Source: a virus (taxonomy: Duplodnaviria; Heunggongvirae; Uroviricota; Caudoviricetes). Taken from it: a DNA stretch of 6,210 bases. This document shows, piece after piece, positions 1-6,210 of the stretch (its first letter is position 1; every line of letters starts with the position of its first letter). Both the position numbers and the translations under genes were made by a program. The DNA lies in IMG/VR virus record IMGVR_UViG_2740892432_000002, positions 1-6,210 of that record. One strand, written 5' to 3'. The notes beneath the pieces are model-generated. The model was given only the letters and a program-made list of their open reading frames with translations, was not told where the DNA came from and did no database searches.

Positions 1-8
1 AGAGACCC

Positions 9-30
9 GGCGGGGGAGAAATCCCCCGCC
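9..30 (+). other. Stable GC-rich hairpin (GGCGGGGGA / GAAA loop / TCCCCCGCC), no U-tract on either strand
   Basis: Perfect 9-bp inverted repeat with a GNRA-type GAAA tetraloop read directly from the sequence. Flanks are not T-rich on either strand, so it is not a canonical intrinsic terminator. Confidence 0.5.
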
Positions 31-69
31 ACCTCTGATGTGTCAGGCATCCTCAACGCACCCGTACTT

Positions 70-93
70 ACCCGCTTCGGCGGGTTTTTTGTT
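70..93 (+). terminator. Rho-independent terminator (ACCCGC / TTCG loop / GCGGGT followed by TTTTTTGTTGT)
   Basis: GC stem with a UUCG-type tetraloop immediately followed by a T6 run. It lies upstream of the first ORF, consistent with the end of an upstream transcription unit (tR-like terminator in a nin-type region). Confidence 0.65.
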
Positions 94-246
94 GTGGTGG
101 AGAAATTAGCTTTTTGTGTACTCTTTTAGCAGTAAGTCTTGAGGGACTGACTGTTGTAAATAGAATCGTGTTTGCTTAGTTAGCGCGCAGGGAGAAGAGG
201 GATGGACCCTTCAGGGGAACGCTATTAATCTGGAAAATTTCTATTT

Positions 247-507
247 ATGGATTTCAAGAAGTTGCGCAAAATTTTTAATAAAGATGGTCTCTATGCTGTG
301 CGCGTTGAAAATGGGGAAATTATTAGTTGTTACTGCATTCATTGCTCACGGGCTTTGCAACAGCCTAGTGGGGCTATGTTAATATATCTCTTGAATGGGC
401 ATGTGACGGACGGATTTATGTTGCGTGAAGATGAATTTGTCACATCATTACGGACATTAAAAGAAATTGGATTAAAAGCTGGCTTTTCTGCTTTTGAAGA
501 CGATTGA
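247..507 (+). CDS. Hypothetical small protein (86 aa), AT-rich codon usage
   Basis: ATG-initiated ORF from the six-frame track. Its stop TGA (505-507) overlaps the TTG at 504 of the next ORF, suggesting operon packing. Only a weak SD-like GGAAAA lies upstream and I recognise no family. Confidence 0.45.
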   Translation: MDFKKLRKIFNKDGLYAVRVENGEIISCYCIHCSRALQQPSGAMLIYLLNGHVTDGFMLREDEFVTSLRTLKEIGLKAGFSAFEDD

Positions 508-584
508 ACTCATCTACAATTCAGCGCAGGGTTGACCCCCTGCTGAGTAACACCGTGCCACCGGAGAAAGCCGATGGCAAGCCG

Positions 585-1184
585 ATGGCACATATACAAC
601 TGATCAAACATACCTCTTCTGGATTACTGCTCCCGGCAACACCGGAGAGTTGCGAATTCTTGCATCAAATAAAAATAGGTGAGTGGATACACGCTGATTT
701 TAAGCGCGTTCGTAACTACGCATTTCACAAGCGTTTTTTCAAACTCCTGCAACTCGGATTCGATTATTGGACTCCTGTCGGTGGGGCGATCACCTCTCGT
801 GAACGAAAACTTGTGTCCGGTTTCGTTGATTATCTGTGTGACTCGGTCGGCCGGGAACATACGCCAGCCCTGAGTGATGCCGCAGAACAATATCTGAATA
901 CCATTGCGATACGCAGAACCTGTGATACGGCATTGCTAAAGTCATTTGATGCTTTCCGTGAATGGGTAACTATTGAGGCCGGATTTTACACCGAGCATTT
1001 TTATCCGGACGGTAGCCGTGGACGCAGGGCAAGATCTATCGCGTTTGCAAATATGGACGATACCGAGTTTCAGCAGGTTTATAAATCCGTACTGAATGTG
1101 CTGTGGAACTGGATCCTGTTCCGTAAATTTTCCTCTCCGGAGGAAGTCGAAAATGTGGCCGCACAGTTACTGGAGTTTGCGTAA
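585..1184 (+). CDS. Lambdoid nin-region protein, DUF1367-like (about 199 aa from ATG 585; the ORF is open from TTG 504)
   Basis: Long + strand ORF directly upstream of a YbcO-like gene and a Q-like gene, a gene order I recall from lambdoid prophages. First in-frame ATG is at 585; the GGAG at 562-565 is rather far from it, so the start is uncertain (alternatives TTG 504, GTG 555). Stop TAA 1182-1184 overlaps the next ATG by 1 nt. Confidence 0.7.
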   Translation: MAHIQLIKHTSSGLLLPATPESCEFLHQIKIGEWIHADFKRVRNYAFHKRFFKLLQLGFDYWTPVGGAITSRERKLVSGFVDYLCDSVGREHTPALSDAAEQYLNTIAIRRTCDTALLKSFDAFREWVTIEAGFYTEHFYPDGSRGRRARSIAFANMDDTEFQQVYKSVLNVLWNWILFRKFSSPEEVENVAAQLLEFA

Positions 1185-1474
1185 TGGTGGATTTACGTAA
1201 AGCGGCGCGGGGGCAGATGTGCACCGTCAGAATTCCTGGCTACTGCAATCACAATCCCGAAACATCTGTGCTGGCGCATTATAGGCTGGCGGGGACGTGC
1301 GGAACAGCGACAAAACCACACGATATGCAGGCAGCGATTGCCTGTAGCTCATGCCACGATTTAATCGACGGGCGGGTAAAAACCAGCGATTACACCAAAG
1401 AAGAATTACGCCTGATGCATGCAGAAGGTGTTTTTCGCACACAAGAAATCTGGAGAAAGGAAGGTTATTTATGA
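1184..1474 (+). CDS. YbcO-like (DUF1364) Cys-rich putative nuclease or zinc-binding protein, 96 aa
   Basis: 96-aa ORF containing several Cys plus a CSSCHD motif; size and position match the YbcO family found just upstream of Q in lambdoid prophages. Start ATG overlaps the upstream stop (TAATG) and its stop overlaps the Q start (ATGA), indicating translational coupling. Confidence 0.75.
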   Translation: MVDLRKAARGQMCTVRIPGYCNHNPETSVLAHYRLAGTCGTATKPHDMQAAIACSSCHDLIDGRVKTSDYTKEELRLMHAEGVFRTQEIWRKEGYL

Positions 1475-2013
1475 TTTACCCAACAAATACAGGCAAAAGC
1501 GGGGAACACCTTCGTCTCACCACGCTGGAAAGTGTCTGGATTCAGGGAAAACTGCGCATGTGGGGGCGCTGGTCGTATATTGGCGGCGGTAAGACGGGAA
1601 ATATGTTTAACCAGTTGCTGGCATCCAAAAAATTGACGAAAACAGCCGTCAATGAAGCCCTGCGCAGGATGAAAAAAGCGGGAATAGAGAAACCTGAGCT
1701 GGAAGCGTTTTTGCGAGAGATGATCAATGGCAAGCAAAAGACCTGGCTGGCGCATTGTACTGATGCAGAGGCGTTATGTATTGATAGAGTCATAAGTGAG
1801 GTGCTGGCAGAGCATCCTGGATTGATTAGTGTCCTCCGGCAACGGTATGAAGGACGGGGGATGACTAAGCGCAAAATGGCTGAATTGCTAAATGATGCAC
1901 ATCCTGAGTGGTGTTTTAGCACATGCGAAAAGCGAATTGCTAATTGGTTGGCTGTTGCTGAGTATGCCCTATATATTCCCATGCGAGAATCATTTGCTCA
2001 AAAAATAGCTTGA
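1471..2013 (+). CDS. Q-like late-gene antitermination protein (180 aa)
   Basis: Last gene before a terminator hairpin and the lysis cassette. Start ATG 1471 has an SD (GGAGAAAGGAAGG) 6 nt upstream and overlaps the upstream stop (ATGA). C-terminal half carries a four-Cys pattern (C-x7-C ... C-x3-C) compatible with the zinc-binding domain of Q proteins. The six-frame track's longer ORF from 1351 overlaps the upstream gene and is treated as a read-through artefact. Confidence 0.7.
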   Translation: MIYPTNTGKSGEHLRLTTLESVWIQGKLRMWGRWSYIGGGKTGNMFNQLLASKKLTKTAVNEALRRMKKAGIEKPELEAFLREMINGKQKTWLAHCTDAEALCIDRVISEVLAEHPGLISVLRQRYEGRGMTKRKMAELLNDAHPEWCFSTCEKRIANWLAVAEYALYIPMRESFAQKIA

Positions 2014-2096
2014 TTTTTTACGCATAAACTGCTTCAATTCCGGTATGCTTCGCAAAGCTGTATCGCGAGGCGAACCAAGCGCATGAACTTTACCAG
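2014..2096 (+). promoter_or_regulatory. Putative late promoter (PR'-like) and Q-utilisation region; exact -35/-10 not resolved
   Basis: Interval between the Q stop and the tR'-like hairpin, where lambdoid phages place PR' and qut. Only weak candidates were found (TTGATT at 2010-2015 with TTCAAT at 2033-2038). Call is by position, not a strong motif. Confidence 0.3.
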
Positions 2097-2125
2097 AACC
2101 CGCCATTGAGCGGGTTTTGTTGTTT
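2097..2125 (+). terminator. tR'-like rho-independent terminator (AACCCGC / CATTGA loop / GCGGGTT followed by TTGTTGTTT)
   Basis: 7-bp GC-rich stem followed by a T-rich tract about 85 nt downstream of the Q stop, the expected position of the terminator that Q-modified RNA polymerase reads through. Confidence 0.65.
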
Positions 2126-2197
2126 CTGGTACTGGCGAACCTGATGTTTCATTTCTGGAGCGCGATTCCTGGCGGAATACCTAGAATCGAGACATTC

Positions 2198-2206
2198 TGG
2201 TAAAAT
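2198..2206 (+). promoter_or_regulatory. Candidate extended -10 promoter (TGg-TAAAAT) for the moron gene
   Basis: TGn immediately upstream of a near-consensus -10 hexamer TAAAAT (2201-2206), about 28 nt before ATG 2235, which has a strong SD (GGAGGTGAG at 2226-2234). No good -35, as is typical of extended -10 promoters. Confidence 0.4.
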
Positions 2207-2234
2207 TGTTTTCAGTACAGGATGTGGAGGTGAG

Positions 2235-2804
2235 ATGAGAGAACTACCTAAAGATTATTTTTTAGGAGTAGATGATGAGCTCGTCGATTATCTTGAAAAA
2301 CAAGGGGAAGAGACGATACGAGAGATTCATCTTTCTAACAAAACCAATGTTGAGAATGGATACAAACTTCTGAACATTCAGATTGTTGGAATTGGTTCAT
2401 CTTTTTTATTGCTGACACAGAAAACTAATTTCGATTTTCTCACCGCCGGAATTACCACATTTACATTACTATGGACATGGTGCGCCATTTACTTGGTATG
2501 TACTGGTTTATCTGTGAAGGTTAGGGGCCTGATCAATGCCCCTCCTGATCATCTATATCATGAAAAATATAAGGATATGGAGCCCTCGAGCTTTAAAATA
2601 TTCGCTGATGCAGGATATTTAGGACCTGATAAGTTATTGCCGCTTATACGAAGGTATCGCCTTGTTGACTTGAGTGATACAGCAAGAGAGTTACTGTTGG
2701 AAAATGAGAAAATCCGCACGAGTCTCGATAAAGCAAGGATGTATACCATCCTTGCTCCGGTAGCGGCGATGTTTATCTCGGCTGTTTTTTTATATGTTCA
2801 ATGA
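2235..2804 (+). CDS. Hypothetical membrane protein, 189 aa, three predicted TM helices; moron between Q/tR' and holin
   Basis: ATG with a strong SD 4 nt upstream. Hydrophobic segments at roughly residues 46-63, 70-92 and 171-189 (C-terminal YTILAPVAAMFISAVFLYV). Acidic N-terminal segment of about 45 aa. Visibly more AT-rich than the flanking phage genes. I recognise no family. Confidence 0.65.
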   Translation: MRELPKDYFLGVDDELVDYLEKQGEETIREIHLSNKTNVENGYKLLNIQIVGIGSSFLLLTQKTNFDFLTAGITTFTLLWTWCAIYLVCTGLSVKVRGLINAPPDHLYHEKYKDMEPSSFKIFADAGYLGPDKLLPLIRRYRLVDLSDTARELLLENEKIRTSLDKARMYTILAPVAAMFISAVFLYVQ

Positions 2805-2934
2805 CTGAGTCGGCAGAATCTCCAACAAAAACACGACGTGTAGCAAAGTCTGTAGTACTTTGTGTTGGAGTTGGTTTTGGTGCCACGGGTTGCTGAGGTT
2901 TATTTTCACCTTGTGGTTTGTTTTTTTCAGACAT
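2773..2934 (-). CDS. Small hypothetical protein, 53 aa (MSEKNKPQGENKPQQPVAPKPTPTQSTTDFATRRVFVGDSADSVIEHIKKQPR), convergent with the moron gene
   Basis: ATG at 2934-2932 (- strand) with SD AGAGGA about 7 nt upstream. A plausible sigma70 -10 (TATATA/TATACT) lies upstream on the - strand near 2990-2998. The six-frame ORF (2773-3165) extends further 5' but the first SD-preceded ATG gives 53 aa. Pro/Gln-rich low-complexity N-terminus; overlaps the 3' end of the 189-aa gene by about 30 nt. Could be spurious. Confidence 0.3.
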   Translation of the reverse strand: MSEKNKPQGENKPQQPVAPKPTPTQSTTDFATRRVFVGDSADSVIEHIKKQPR

Positions 2935-3028
2935 AAAAATCCTCTTTGTTTGAATTGTTACTTTTGGCGATTTAACGATATCAAACACGAGTATATACCG
3001 CCAGAAGCTTAATCTGGCACTCCATCTG

Positions 3029-3056
3029 GCCCCGGCATGTCCCGGGGCTTTTTCGT
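3029..3056 (+). terminator. Rho-independent terminator (GCCCCGG / CATGTC loop / CCGGGGC followed by TTTTTCGTTGTT)
   Basis: Perfect 7-bp GC stem followed by a T5 run on the + strand, about 95 nt upstream of the holin start. It is oriented to stop + strand transcription from the moron promoter before the lysis genes. The - strand flank is not T-rich, so it is unidirectional. Confidence 0.65.
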
Positions 3057-3151
3057 TGTTAGGCTCCGGAAAGATCCTCGACTTCTTGTTAGCAAGCCTG
3101 AGAGCCTGAATCTTACACTTAGCACCATCCGAACTCTCGGAGGTGAGGCTT

Positions 3152-3493
3152 ATGAAAATGCACAATGCCCCTCATTCCTGGCCTGACTTACTGGAACTCT
3201 TACAAAGTTGGTGGCGTGGAGATACGCCGCTGGGTGCAGTGGTTATGTCAATTATTATGGCTGGTTTGCGCATTGCCTATTTTGGCGGTGGCGGCGGCTG
3301 GAAACGAAAAACGCTTGAGATTCTGCTTTGTGGTGCTCTGACGCTGACCTTTGCATCCGCGCTTGAGTATGTCGGATGGCCTAAATCACTTTCTGTTGCC
3401 ATTGGTGGTGGGGTGGGGCTGATTGGTGTTGATGCTATTCGTGGTGCGGCAATGAGGGTCATCGGTAACAAGTTCGGTGCCCATAAGGAGTAA
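3152..3493 (+). CDS. Holin (three predicted TM helices, MKM dual-start motif); not lambda S-like in sequence
   Basis: Sits immediately upstream of the endolysin (stop TAA 3491-3493, R ATG 3497). SD GGAGG at 3139-3143 is 8 nt before ATG 3152, and a second Met follows at codon 3 (M-K-M), as in the lambda S107/S105 holin/antiholin arrangement. An in-frame GTG at 3143 would give MRLMKM. Three hydrophobic helices and a charged C-terminus (RGAAMRVIGNKFGAHKE). Confidence 0.8.
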   Translation: MKMHNAPHSWPDLLELLQSWWRGDTPLGAVVMSIIMAGLRIAYFGGGGGWKRKTLEILLCGALTLTFASALEYVGWPKSLSVAIGGGVGLIGVDAIRGAAMRVIGNKFGAHKE

Positions 3494-3496
3494 TTA

Positions 3497-3973
3497 ATGC
3501 AGACACTTAATTCCCAGCGTAAAGCTTTCCTTGATATGGTGGCATGGTCAGAAGGAACAGATAACGGACGGCAGAAAACCAGAAATCACGGTTATGATGT
3601 TATTGTCGGTGGCGAACTGTTCACTGATTACTCCGATCACCCCCGCAAACTTGTCACGCTAAATCCGAAACTCAAATCAACAGCCGCTGGACGTTACCAG
3701 CTTCTTTCACGCTGGTGGGATGCCTACCGCAAGCAACTTGGCCTGAAAGATTTTTCTCCAGAAAGTCAGGATGCTGTAGCGCTGCAGCAGATTAAAGAGC
3801 GTGGCGCTTTGCCGATGATTGATCGCGGTGATATCCGTCAGGCTATCGACCGTTGCAGCAATATATGGGCTTCACTGCCGGGCGCTGGTTATGGTCAGTT
3901 CGAGCATAAGGCTGACAGTCTGATTGCAAAATTCAAAGAAGCTGGCGGAACGGTCAGAGAGATTGAGGTATGA
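3497..3973 (+). CDS. R: Endolysin, lambda R-type lytic transglycosylase (158 aa)
   Basis: Translation is near-identical over most of its length to lambda R as I recall it ([55 protein letters not shown]...REI.V); only the first ~6 residues differ. Perfect SD AAGGAG 6 nt upstream. Stop overlaps the Rz start (ATGA at 3970-3973). Confidence 0.95.
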
Positions 3974-4434
3974 GCAGAGTAACCGCGATTATCTCCGCTC
4001 TGGTTATCTGCATCGTCGTCTGCCTGTCATGGGGTGTTAATCATTACCGTGATAACGCCATCGCCTACAAAGAACAGCGCGACAAAAATGCCAGAGAACT
4101 GAAGCTGGCGAACGCGGCAATTACTGACATGCAGATGCGTCAGCGTGATGTTGCTGCGCTCGATGCAAAATACACGAAGGAGTTAGCTGATGCGAAAGCT
4201 GAAAATGATGTTCTGCGTGATGATGTTGCCGCTGGTCGTCGTCGGTTGCACATCAAAGCAGTCTGTCAGTCAGTGCGTGAAGCCACCACCGCCTCCGGCG
4301 TGGATAATGCAGCCTCCCCCCGACTGGCAGACACCGCTGAACGGGATTATTTCACCCTCCGGGAACGACTGGTAATGATGCAGGCCCAACTTGAAGGTGC
4401 TCAGCAATACATAACCGAGCAGTGTTTAAAGTAA
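3970..4434 (+). CDS. Rz: Rz i-spanin (inner-membrane spanin subunit), 154 aa
   Basis: N-terminal TM helix ([16 protein letters not shown]) followed by a charged, coiled-coil-like periplasmic domain. Near-identical to lambda Rz from memory. Position after R and the embedded Rz1 confirm the call. Confidence 0.95.
4190..4375 (+). CDS. Rz1: Rz1 o-spanin lipoprotein (61 aa), fully embedded in the +1 frame of Rz
   Basis: Signal peptide with lipobox (LVVVGC), then a Pro-rich mature region ([18 protein letters not shown]). Matches lambda Rz1 and the Rac RzoR as I recall them. Classic embedded-gene architecture. Confidence 0.9.
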
Positions 4435-4514
4435 AATCTTAACTACAATATGATTCATTTTGATGATTGTTTCATAAGGAACAGTGAAGTAAGATCTAAG
4501 AGGAGTTAAATTTT

Positions 4515-4554
4515 ATACAGTATAATCATAATATTGCAGCAAGGTGGTTATAAT
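4515..4554 (+). promoter_or_regulatory. AT-rich putative promoter region for trkG (two consensus TATAAT hexamers at 4521-4526 and 4549-4554)
   Basis: Two perfect -10 hexamers in the very AT-rich intergenic region between Rz and trkG. No convincing -35 was found. Call is by motif only. Confidence 0.3.
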
Positions 4555-4571
4555 TGAAAGAATATTTAGAT

Positions 4572-6029
4572 ATGAATACATCTCATGTAAGAGTTGTTAC
4601 TCATATGTGTGGGTTCCTGGTTTGGCTCTATAGTCTTTCAATGTTGCCACCAATGGTTGTAGCATTGTTTTATAAAGAAAAAAGCCTGTTCGTTTTCTTA
4701 ATAACTTTCGTTATATTTTTTTGCATTGGTGGCGGAGCGTGGTATACAACTAAGAAATCTGGCATTCAATTACGTACCCGTGATGGGTTTATTATAATTG
4801 TAATGTTTTGGATTTTGTTTTCTGTTATTAGTGCATTCCCTTTATGGATTGACTCAGAACTTAATTTAACGTTCATTGATGCTCTGTTTGAAGGGGTTTC
4901 TGGAATAACAACAACAGGAGCAACTGTAATTGATGATGTTAGTTCATTACCTCGGGCATATTTGTACTATCGGTCACAGTTAAATTTTATAGGTGGTTTA
5001 GGAGTTATTGTTCTGGCGGTTGCTGTATTGCCATTATTGGGTATTGGTGGTGCAAAGCTTTATCAGTCAGAAATGCCGGGGCCATTTAAGGATGACAAAC
5101 TCACTCCCCGCCTGGCCGATACGTCACGGACACTGTGGATAACTTATTCTTTATTAGGTATTGCTTGTATTGTCTGTTATAGACTTGCAGGAATGCCTTT
5201 GTTTGATGCTATTTGTCACGGGATTTCCACAGTTTCGCTTGGTGGTTTCTCAACTCATAGCGAGAGTATCGGATATTTTAATAACTATTTGGTTGAGCTG
5301 GTGGCTGGTTCTTTTTCCCTGCTATCGGCTTTCAACTTCACTCTTTGGTATATTGTTATTAGCAGGAAAACGATAAAACCTTTAATCAGAGATATTGAAC
5401 TTCGTTTCTTTCTGTTAATAGCCTTAGGGGTGATCATTGTTACCTCTTTCCAGGTCTGGCATATAGGTATGTATGACTTGCATGGAAGTTTTATTCATTC
5501 GTTTTTTCTTGCCAGCTCCATGCTCACTGATAATGGTTTAGCTACGCAGGATTATGCAAGTTGGCCCACGCACACGATAGTGTTTTTGCTGTTGTCAAGT
5601 TTCTTTGGGGGATGTATAGGTTCAACTTGTGGTGGAATTAAGTCACTTCGATTTCTTATACTTTTCAAACAAAGCAAACACGAGATAAATCAGCTTTCTC
5701 ATCCCAGAGCGTTGTTGAGTGTAAATGTAGGAGGGAAGATAGTTACAGATCGTGTAATGAGGTCTGTATGGAGTTTCTTTTTTCTTTATACTCTCTTCAC
5801 GGTGTTTTTTATACTGGTGTTAAATGGTATGGGATATGATTTTCTTACATCATTTGCAACAGTGGCTGCATGTATTAATAATATGGGATTAGGTTTTGGG
5901 GCTACTGCATCGTCATTCGGAGTGCTTAATGACATTGCAAAATGTTTAATGTGCATAGCTATGATTCTTGGTCGCCTTGAAATTTATCCTGTTATTATAT
6001 TGTTTTCAGGTTTTTTTTGGCGCTCCTAA
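4572..6029 (+). CDS. trkG: TrkG/TrkH-family potassium uptake membrane protein (485 aa from ATG 4572)
   Basis: Long polytopic membrane protein with repeated Gly-rich selectivity-filter-like motifs (GITTTGATV, GGFSTH, GLATQDY, NNMGLGFG). N-terminus MNTSHVRVVTHM matches Rac-prophage TrkG as I recall it. Markedly AT-rich compared with the adjacent lysis genes. An in-frame TTG at 4554 has a better-placed SD (AAGGTGG at 4541-4547), so the true start may be 6 codons upstream. Confidence 0.93.
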   Translation: MNTSHVRVVTHMCGFLVWLYSLSMLPPMVVALFYKEKSLFVFLITFVIFFCIGGGAWYTTKKSGIQLRTRDGFIIIVMFWILFSVISAFPLWIDSELNLTFIDALFEGVSGITTTGATVIDDVSSLPRAYLYYRSQLNFIGGLGVIVLAVAVLPLLGIGGAKLYQSEMPGPFKDDKLTPRLADTSRTLWITYSLLGIACIVCYRLAGMPLFDAICHGISTVSLGGFSTHSESIGYFNNYLVELVAGSFSLLSAFNFTLWYIVISRKTIKPLIRDIELRFFLLIALGVIIVTSFQVWHIGMYDLHGSFIHSFFLASSMLTDNGLATQDYASWPTHTIVFLLLSSFFGGCIGSTCGGIKSLRFLILFKQSKHEINQLSHPRALLSVNVGGKIVTDRVMRSVWSFFFLYTLFTVFFILVLNGMGYDFLTSFATVAACINNMGLGFGATASSFGVLNDIAKCLMCIAMILGRLEIYPVIILFSGFFWRS

Positions 6030-6063
6030 TATATGGCTGATTTATAATTGTGAGTTTAATATT

Positions 6064-6204
6064 ATGTTGACTCACTCATTGATCCAATACCTAACTTTAC
6101 CAGCAACACCTCCGTCCCCAGTAGCACTGGCTGCTGGGGTGCGTTTTATTCATAAAGCAAGGCTGTATGAGCGAGAAATTAAAGATGATCTTACCCAGCA
6201 ATAG
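6064..6204 (+). CDS. Small hypothetical ORF (46 aa) downstream of trkG; uncertain
   Basis: ATG 6064 in frame with track ORF 5968-6204; the upstream part overlaps trkG and is rejected. Only a weak SD. Alternatively, an ATG at 6185 (MILPSNSG...) in another frame may start a gene that runs off the window end (possibly the Rac ynaK homologue; not verifiable here). Confidence 0.2.
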   Translation: MLTHSLIQYLTLPATPPSPVALAAGVRFIHKARLYEREIKDDLTQQ

Positions 6205-6210
6205 TGGACA

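Follow-up and report, generated by a model that had tools for sequence, protein, structure and literature searches.

Here, we describe a two-gene cassette in a 6,210-nucleotide (nt) stretch of viral DNA (positions 1 to 6,210 of IMG/VR record IMGVR_UViG_2740892432_000002; henceforth, the window), which belongs to a Rac-like lambdoid prophage of Escherichia coli and covers its late-regulatory and lysis region. Gene X encodes a protein of 189 amino acids (aa) with three predicted transmembrane (TM) helices, and gene Y, on the opposite strand, encodes a hydrophilic protein of 53 aa. Sequence comparisons lend good support to the idea that X and Y form a self-contained, horizontally mobile cassette (a "moron") of temperate Enterobacterales phages. 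The two genes probably make up a module of the phage-exclusion or toxin-like kind rather than helping the neighboring lysis genes. A first-pass annotation of the window, made from the sequence alone, had considered the 189-aa open reading frame (ORF) by itself; the convergent gene Y, which overlaps the last 32 nt of X, and the regulatory elements of the cassette were absent from it. Because the ORF has this partner gene and regulatory elements of its own, the functional unit is the pair and not the 189-aa ORF alone. The cassette comprises the following features.

2198–2206, plus strand: candidate promoter of X (P_X), extended −10 element TGGTAAAAT from comparative alignment, with the hexamer TAAAAT at 2201–2206
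2235–2804, plus strand: gene X, 189 aa, three predicted TM helices (WP_001208722.1, PHROG 11870)
2730–2758, minus strand: 11-bp stem-loop of the Y transcript (stems 2748–2758 and 2730–2740), inside X codons about 166–175
2773–2934, minus strand: gene Y, 53 aa, hydrophilic and Pro/Gln/Lys-rich (MSEKNKPQGENKPQ...DFATRRVFVGDSADSVIEHIKKQPR), convergent with X
2956–2987, no strand assigned: conserved 32-nt element, plus-strand consensus GGTTACTTTTGGCGATTTAACGATATCAGATG, holding the P_Y candidate and the Y 5′ untranslated region (UTR) on the minus strand
2983–2975, minus strand: candidate promoter of Y (P_Y), extended −10 element TGATATCGT, about 49 nt upstream of the Y start
3000–3018, no strand assigned: palindrome or hairpin GCCAGA-N7-TCTGGC, between P_Y and the terminator
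3028–3053, plus strand: intrinsic terminator, GGCCCCGG-CATGTC-CCGGGGCT followed by TTTTT, which ends the X unit and forms the right edge of the cassette

The ORF of X was confirmed with exactly the coordinates and translation given at first, and a strong Shine-Dalgarno sequence (GGAGG, 2226–2230) lies ahead of it. A pseudogene fragment was ruled out because its length is conserved: most of the 104 clusters of X homologues are 188–194 aa long and align with X end to end at 97–100% coverage, as befits an intact gene. When 1.84 billion representative proteins were searched exhaustively with a profile, only 98 X relatives were recovered, all of 160–200 aa and with the same architecture, and none of them provided a bridge to a known family. 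The X family is real, compact, and rare and is found mainly in Enterobacterales prophages. The initial statement that X belongs to no recognizable family held in searches of Pfam (0 families at E ≤ 0.1), NCBIfam (0 matches), PADLOC-DB 2.0.0 (no match for X or Y at E ≤ 1, in a release that does not cover systems described after 2023), PDB by sequence (best E = 0.16), and PDB and BFVD by Foldseek (nothing at E ≤ 0.001). The sole library match of X is PHROG 11870, the function of which is unassigned. Solved and predicted structures returned generic long-helix bundles or nothing, and neither profile nor structure searches gave similarity to a transporter, enzyme, or envelope family. Scanning 71 distant members of the X family against Pfam gave scattered matches only, all with E > 0.002 and none to a holin family; among these, PycTM (PF18967) matched one of the 71 members at noise level (E = 0.016). 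Finally, no paper was found in the literature under the X and Y accessions or PHROG identifiers.

The three-TM architecture proposed at the outset, with an acidic N terminus and a C-terminal TM helix, is backed by hydropathy and by an AlphaFold2 model, TM1 being marginal. In Kyte-Doolittle profiles with a window of 19, peaks are found at residues 76–94 (TM2, 1.65) and 170–188 (TM3, 2.01), while TM1 is the least hydrophobic of the three helices, and residues 42–60 reach 1.6 in the family average only. In the model (mean predicted local distance difference test score 81.8), a helix of residues 14–62 comprises a cytoplasmic part running into TM1 and is connected by a tight hairpin to the helix of residues 68–91 (TM2); short helices follow, and the final ∼20 residues of a long helix, 134–188, represent TM3. 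The N terminus contains 6 Lys/Arg and 11 Asp/Glu residues, and the loop of residues 93–168 contains 14 Lys/Arg residues. Based on this charge distribution and the positive-inside rule, X is, therefore, predicted to have an N-in, C-out topology in which the N terminus and residues 93–168 would be cytoplasmic and almost nothing would be exposed to the periplasm. The cytoplasmic part is predicted by the model to be helical at residues about 14–45 and about 93–168. In an alignment of 46 X sequences, 21 columns are invariant (F9, E21, E25, S34, N38, E40, L45, L46, G52, F57, L60, F76, W80, L92, P104, L107, Y108, G127, R140, L164, and P175). Conserved cytoplasmic motifs include the N-terminal DYFLxxDDxLVxFLEKQGEE, the juxtamembrane SNxxNxENGYKLL, PxxLY, and RRYRL, and the TM helices carry GIGSS and other small-residue motifs.

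Some relatives of X occur in other settings. The same match to X (52.9% identity, 202 bits) is present in PP818812.1 (16613–17173), the 47.5-kb "Actinobacillus pleuropneumoniae" phage vB_Apl-pPE4, and in CP100067.1 (8686–9246), a 47.7-kb non-mobilizable E. coli "plasmid"; these two records may be one element, i.e., a phage-plasmid or a case of a questionable host label. Two very distant homologues, L098 and L099, are 162 aa long (6001–6489 in both loci). The former lies in a prophage just ahead of HNH and terminase genes and the latter on a short metagenomic contig, surrounded by glycosyltransferase, GtrA, and BNR genes.

Gene Y emerged when the proteins encoded in the window were mapped onto 90 loci encoding X relatives. 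Many of these loci had unrelated Q, holin, and endolysin genes next to X, yet the Y ORF was found by tblastn at a fixed minus-strand offset in ∼75 of the 90; by ORF inspection, Y is present in essentially all intact loci. The 3′ overlap between Y and X is 32 nt in the window and 15–35 nt in every locus listed. The pairing persists down to about 24% identity of X, as seen in locus L101, in which the cassette lies beside cI, Y has 56 aa, and the overlap is 20 nt. Sequence comparison indicates that selection acts on Y as a coding sequence. In a set of 48 distinct Y genes, differences at codon positions 1, 2, and 3 amount to 19174, 15078, and 27599, respectively, so that third positions vary most; synonymous codon differences are frequent and insertions and deletions are in frame. 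The Y proteins share the pattern M-S-x-x-N-K-P, a Pro/Gln/Lys-rich stretch, D-F-S/T-x-x-R-x-x-V-G-D/N-S-A-E/D, and a basic tail, and public records contain Y as a hypothetical protein of 47–53 aa in Yersinia, Providencia, Pantoea, Serratia, Klebsiella, and Escherichia. A chance antisense ORF was ruled out by the coding pattern together with this independent annotation. Y is less conserved than X. In the AlphaFold2 prediction, residues 1–38 are without secondary structure, residues 39–50 form a short helix, and the predicted TM-score (pTM) is 0.20; on this model, Y would be a mostly disordered peptide with a short conserved C-terminal motif.

RefSeq annotates Y as a 71-aa protein starting from a GTG at 2988 (WP_152948782.1, PHROG 14506). 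This start appears to lie too far upstream, and we favor the ATG at 2934, which gives 53 aa, because conservation, a Shine-Dalgarno sequence (GAGGA, 2940–2944) ahead of this ATG, and the homologues agree on it. The N-terminal extension in the RefSeq version, up to 2988, spans the conserved non-coding promoter-like and 5′ UTR element; thus, the RefSeq start of Y apparently needs to be moved downstream.

The comparative alignments reveal candidate signals at both ends of the cassette. A scan with the sigma-70 consensus detected no full promoter for X or Y, and the −10-like motifs come from the comparative alignments only. Upstream of X, a nearly invariant GGTAAAAT is located about 38 nt from the start codon, and TA[AG][AG]AT occurs 34–41 nt upstream of X (24 nt in one locus) in 32 of 40 unique loci versus 2.7 expected from shuffles; from the P_X candidate, transcription is predicted to start near 2213. 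Upstream of Y, many columns of the 32-nt element are invariant or nearly so across 16 loci in which the X proteins are only 50–90% identical, and 30 of 37 unique loci have TGnTA[TC]nGT at a distance of 46–57 nt ahead of the Y ATG (0.28 expected). We, therefore, regard 2956–2987 as a putative promoter and 5′ UTR element of Y. The palindrome at 3000–3018 covaries across loci (GCCAGT/ACTGGC and GCCGCC/GGCGGC) and shares ACCGCCAGA with a lambda operator half-site. At the RNA level, it could fold as a hairpin within the 3′ UTR of X; alternatively, it may serve as an operator, upstream of the Y promoter, to which a dimeric regulator binds. The terminator at 3028–3053 was found by a terminator scan, its position is conserved, and six of its seven stem pairs show compensatory changes among 16 loci, with a T-run following the stem.

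A further conserved structure is embedded in the coding sequence of X. The stem-loop at 2730–2758 begins 15 nt past the Y stop codon. When the minus strand is read, pairing holds in 96% of cells and four pairs show compensatory changes, values that were reached by 0 of 500 shuffles; of 28 diverse loci, 19 have a stem of 11–17 bp here. The plus strand would contain 83 A·C mismatches, which are G·U pairs on the minus strand, versus 13 G·U pairs, which are mismatches on the minus strand; this asymmetry argues that the structure is selected on the strand of the Y transcript, in which it is a candidate terminator or 3′ stabilizer. The Y transcript may terminate at this stem-loop, and the same stem-loop also constrains X residues around 166–175. 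If these signals are real, the X transcript from its own promoter would be about 840 nt long and stop ahead of the holin gene, while the Y mRNA would be about 240 nt long and fully complementary to the last ∼25 codons and the 3′ UTR of the X mRNA. The elements themselves are backed by sequence comparison; that they act as promoters, set the transcript ends, or lead to an RNA–RNA interaction is inferred.

The cassette is found in at least three phage positions. Among 107 loci, 89 are in antiterminator-lysis regions, 13 are in tail modules between tail genes and the tape-measure gene, two are beside cI, and three are unresolved. Hence, X is not always beside a holin gene, which was the question that the first-pass annotation had put to a survey of homologue contexts, and its idea of an accessory prophage gene is borne out by a mobile cassette that occupies these different sites. 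The antiterminators flanking the cassette belong to four unrelated families (DUF1133, PF06530, PF03589, and Ogr/Delta) and the neighboring holins to at least five Pfam families (PF05106, PF04971/PF16080, PF16083, PF05449, and PF16931). In 15 of the 107 loci, i.e., those in tail modules or beside cI, there are no lysis genes within 5 kb. X runs in the same direction as the late genes around it, and in L101 Y is co-oriented with cI and located directly downstream of it. The cassette has a GC content of 38–41% versus 45–52% in the phage flanks. In Klebsiella loci L103–L106, a gene for a 281-aa NMT1_3 protein (PF16868; 2916–3761) lies between the X/Y cassette and the holin gene, co-oriented with X and the lysis genes, as further cargo stacked in the slot between Q and S.

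The moron was reportedly defined for HK97 and HK022 by Juhala et al. in 2000, and the prototype, HK97 gene 15 (gp15), which is located between the genes for the tail chaperone and the tape measure, is reported by Cumby et al. in 2012 to encode a superinfection-exclusion membrane protein. The X/Y cassette has its own terminator, is variably inserted between phage genes, and has an atypical composition; as for a promoter of its own, it has the conserved −10-like TAAAAT described above, and no −35 element was seen. It resembles the gp15 moron in being autonomous, with a promoter-like element and an intrinsic terminator, in having a lower GC content than its flanks, in lying between conserved phage genes while being absent in relatives, and in encoding a predicted inner-membrane product. 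In addition, the tail-module site just before the tape-measure gene is the HK97 gp15 slot. By contrast, X has no sequence or fold relation to gp15, and the cassette adds a second, convergent, and overlapping gene.

This second gene invites comparison with systems in which a larger gene and a small antisense gene are paired. In Tha/Ith of Staphylococcus aureus phage 80alpha, a small protein encoded antisense inhibits the effector, and antisense transcription contributes less (PMC11087260). In Tai/Ati of phi80, Q-driven late transcription reduces expression of the defense gene on the other strand (PMC11364771). Both consist of a larger gene that is overlapped by a small antisense gene under a promoter of its own, and both couple immunity to the phage life cycle (PMC11087260, PMC11364771). 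X and Y are like these "noncontiguous operons" in that a larger gene is paired with a small opposite gene nested in a phage operon, an arrangement that would give overlapping transcripts and mutually exclusive expression states; for X/Y, this likeness is one of gene architecture alone. They differ from them in that the proteins are unrelated, Tha being a HEPN RNase and Tai soluble while X has three TM helices; in that the small gene of the X/Y pair opposes late transcription and runs with cI; and in that the pair moves among three phage positions.

The layout also recalls type I toxin–antitoxin (TA) systems such as txpA/RatA, bsrG/SR4, and yonT/SR6 of Bacillus subtilis prophages and hok/sok of E. 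coli, in which the 3′ end of a membrane-protein mRNA is complementary to a short, structured, convergent RNA and which likewise reside on prophages. Control of a prophage membrane toxin by a convergent antisense RNA overlapping at the 3′ end, as in yonT/SR6, is typical of type I TA systems. For the X/Y pair, the conserved overlap of 15–35 nt between the genes and the stem-loop specific to the minus strand are consistent with antisense control, as far as sequence can tell. However, type I toxins are small hydrophobic proteins of <60 aa whereas X has 189 aa and a large conserved cytoplasmic domain, and, unlike their non-coding antitoxin RNAs, Y encodes a conserved protein. As to exclusion systems of other phages, the cassette in L101 lies 3′ of cI in the position that corresponds to that of lambda rexAB, and lambda RexA/RexB and P22 SieB/Esc/sas similarly combine a membrane component with a second component; P22 sieB is likewise under antisense RNA control. 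Unlike X, RexB has four TM helices, RexA has 279 aa, and the genes of these systems are co-directional whereas X and Y are convergent. Pfam includes RexA, RexB, and SieB families, and X matched no Pfam family of any kind at E ≤ 0.1. Altogether, the cassette is moron-like and has a layout that resembles noncontiguous-operon pairs and type I TA systems, and it is a member of none of those protein families.

Among the functions that the pair might have, we tentatively favor phage exclusion or abortive infection, by a moron whose Y gene, through an antisense RNA and/or a peptide, keeps the inner-membrane protein X in check, and we do so by analogy: exclusion or abortive infection would be the most natural function for a prophage moron that encodes a membrane protein. 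We suggest that X is an inner-membrane effector whose conserved cytoplasmic surface receives a signal or a partner and whose GIGSS and other small-residue motifs in the TM helices mediate packing or oligomerization. Y could act by two routes. Convergent transcription and the complementary RNA might reduce X synthesis, by transcriptional interference or by cleavage of the duplex, and the Y peptide would probably dock on the acidic cytoplasmic domain of X via its conserved C-terminal motif and basic tail. In the uninduced lysogen, the two promoters would hold X at a low, buffered level. The X/Y ratio would then shift upon late read-through from pR′ or when an invading phage shuts off host transcription, and the pay-off would be exclusion of, or an abortive response to, competing phages. 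A more elaborate version, which we hold to be rather doubtful, is that the one convergent gene provides a two-level antidote, i.e., a structured antisense RNA as well as a disordered peptide that binds a three-TM effector with a cytoplasmic sensor domain, in that way combining type I and type II antitoxin logic in a portable moron that serves as a previously undescribed, life-cycle-coupled kind of prophage immunity or toxin module.

A role in lysis, as suggested by the first-pass annotation, is not supported. X could act as an antiholin-like accessory regulator that sets lysis timing together with the adjacent holin and endolysin: in 89 of 107 loci it lies directly upstream of the lysis cassette, it could be co-transcribed with that cassette from the late promoter, and it is a small multi-TM protein. 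However, the partner holins come from at least five unrelated Pfam families, lysis genes are absent within 5 kb of the 13 tail-module and two cI loci, the cassette and the holin gene are not adjacent in Klebsiella but have another gene between them, X has no Pfam holin or antiholin match while the true holin is encoded by the next gene, and the cassette is closed by its own terminator, which would insulate the lysis genes. Given the diversity of holins, the tail and cI contexts, and the insulating terminator, a dedicated antiholin or lysis-timing role is very unlikely. The position between Q and S should not be taken as a sign of a lysis role. Morons often carry host-fitness factors, and trkG is cargo in the same window; X might accordingly be a lysogenic-conversion or host-physiology gene, with a role in membrane stress, transport, or the envelope and with Y merely tuning its dose. 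The location of the distant homologue L099 amid glycosyltransferase and GtrA genes would fit such a role, which we nevertheless deem unlikely, as X resembles no transporter, enzyme, or envelope family, its family is almost confined to prophages, and elaborate antisense control suggests a potentially harmful product.

A harmful product is also at the center of the idea that the pair is an addiction or stabilization module of the TA type without a part in phage defense, in which X would be a membrane toxin and Y its RNA and/or peptide antidote. The convergent, 3′-overlapping arrangement of toxin and antisense gene is the layout of type I TA systems on prophages, e.g., yonT/SR6 on SPbeta; moreover, the X/Y overlap and the structured antisense 3′ end are conserved, and the cassette is confined to mobile elements. 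Against this, known type I toxins are only about a third as long as X, the antisense RNA codes for a conserved protein, an intact X relative without a partner exists in a chromosomal context (L099), and Y is frameshifted in locus L027; we consider an addiction module improbable. The roles of the two proteins could also be reversed, following the logic of Tai/Ati. Y would then be the active factor expressed in the lysogen, e.g., a peptide that blocks incoming phages or alters the host, and X, made from the late operon, would neutralize or sequester Y at the membrane, while the long 3′ UTR of X silences Y during the phage's own lytic growth. Y is oriented against late transcription in 102 loci, its placement in L101, co-oriented with and directly 3′ of cI, is the orientation expected for expression in the lysogen, and in phi80 the defense gene tai is the antisense gene and the antidote lies in the Q-driven operon (PMC11364771). 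But Y is a low-complexity, largely disordered peptide of ∼50 aa and less conserved than X, and X has its own conserved −10 element and terminator, which a purely late gene would not need. Reversed roles, too, have a low probability in our view.

Several observations weigh against exclusion or abortive infection by an X protein under the control of Y. No homology ties X or Y to defense, toxicity, or any other activity. With its large size and numerous conserved polar residues in the cytoplasmic part, X is unlike a simple pore-forming toxin. Because X is co-oriented with the late operons, it would, if it depolarized the membrane upon late overexpression, risk triggering the holin prematurely. 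On the side of regulation, no −35 element is recognizable for X or Y, so that the promoters are −10-like motifs, and the U-tract of the Y stem-loop is weak. The distant X homologues L098 and L099 are without a convincing Y. Finally, in L027 (IMGVR_UViG_2671180676_000008), X is intact and 100% identical and Y is disrupted: a 1-nt deletion about 100–130 nt 3′ of the X stop codon causes a frameshift after MSEK. Either this is a homopolymer sequencing error or loss of the Y protein is tolerated. L027, thus, argues against the Y protein as an essential antidote, unless the deletion is a sequencing error or the RNA suffices.

Prophage accessory cassettes of unassigned function are a common category. 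In this case, the X and Y protein families are uncharacterized and unrelated to anything catalogued, and it is unusual for a cassette to combine an antisense partner that codes for a protein with an RNA structure inside the opposite ORF and with portability among three phage sites. If the pair indeed functions in exclusion or abortive infection, it would add a new protein family to the prophage defense of E. coli, Klebsiella, Citrobacter, Serratia, Yersinia, and relatives, and one that is recognized by none of the profile and structure libraries searched. The cassette would also illustrate, in compact form, how a membrane effector can be regulated by an antisense RNA that itself encodes a protein, with an RNA structure inside the opposite coding sequence. 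Regardless of function, the X/Y pair is the unit of study.

The window contains, in this order, a DUF1367 gene, a YbcO-like gene, the DUF1133/Q-like antiterminator gene, X, the small minus-strand gene, holin, GH24 lysozyme, Rz/Rz1, and trkG. The features surrounding the cassette are the following.

1471–2013: Q-like antiterminator gene (DUF1133)
2094–2119, plus strand: terminator-like hairpin in a tR′-like position, 80 nt 3′ of the Q-like gene and upstream of the cassette
3152–3493, plus strand: holin gene S, lambda family (PF05106)
3497–3973: GH24 lysozyme gene
3970–4434 and 4190–4375: Rz/Rz1
4572–6029: trkG, cargo gene for a Trk potassium transporter (PF02386)

The holin, which the first-pass annotation had called "non-lambda," instead belongs to the lambda family based on its Pfam match (PF05106, E = 2e-27) and on its RefSeq name, "phage holin, lambda family." The hairpin at 2094–2119 lies outside the mobile cassette, because conservation between loci does not extend upstream of the −10 element. 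From its tR′-like position, it follows that the late promoter and Q-utilization site are probably within 2014–2093; this region is not conserved along with the cassette. trkG lies downstream of Rz/Rz1 in a block of 33–43% GC (4350–6210) and is typical cargo of Rac-type prophages.

Bases 2000–3200 are 100% identical to a stretch of E. coli strain PRO_A-1462-6M-A_ESBL, and 223 of 5426 complete E. coli genomes match ≥80% of this 1.2-kb stretch. In strain PRO_A-1462-6M-A_ESBL (locus L001, 1–11200), the early region of the prophage contains hokD, a gene for an anti-phage dGTPase, and a DUF4145 gene, together with IS1/IS3 insertions, one of which interrupts the DUF1367 gene that is intact in the window. 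A search of Rfam gave no family within 2000–3200. Elsewhere in the window, a two-hairpin element with a terminal T-run at 10–90 (plus strand) has a sub-threshold Rfam match to isrK (33.2 bits versus a gathering score of 50; E = 2e-4), which is an Hfq-binding prophage small RNA. This isrK-like element lies upstream of an 86-aa gene (247–507) that matches PHROG 340.

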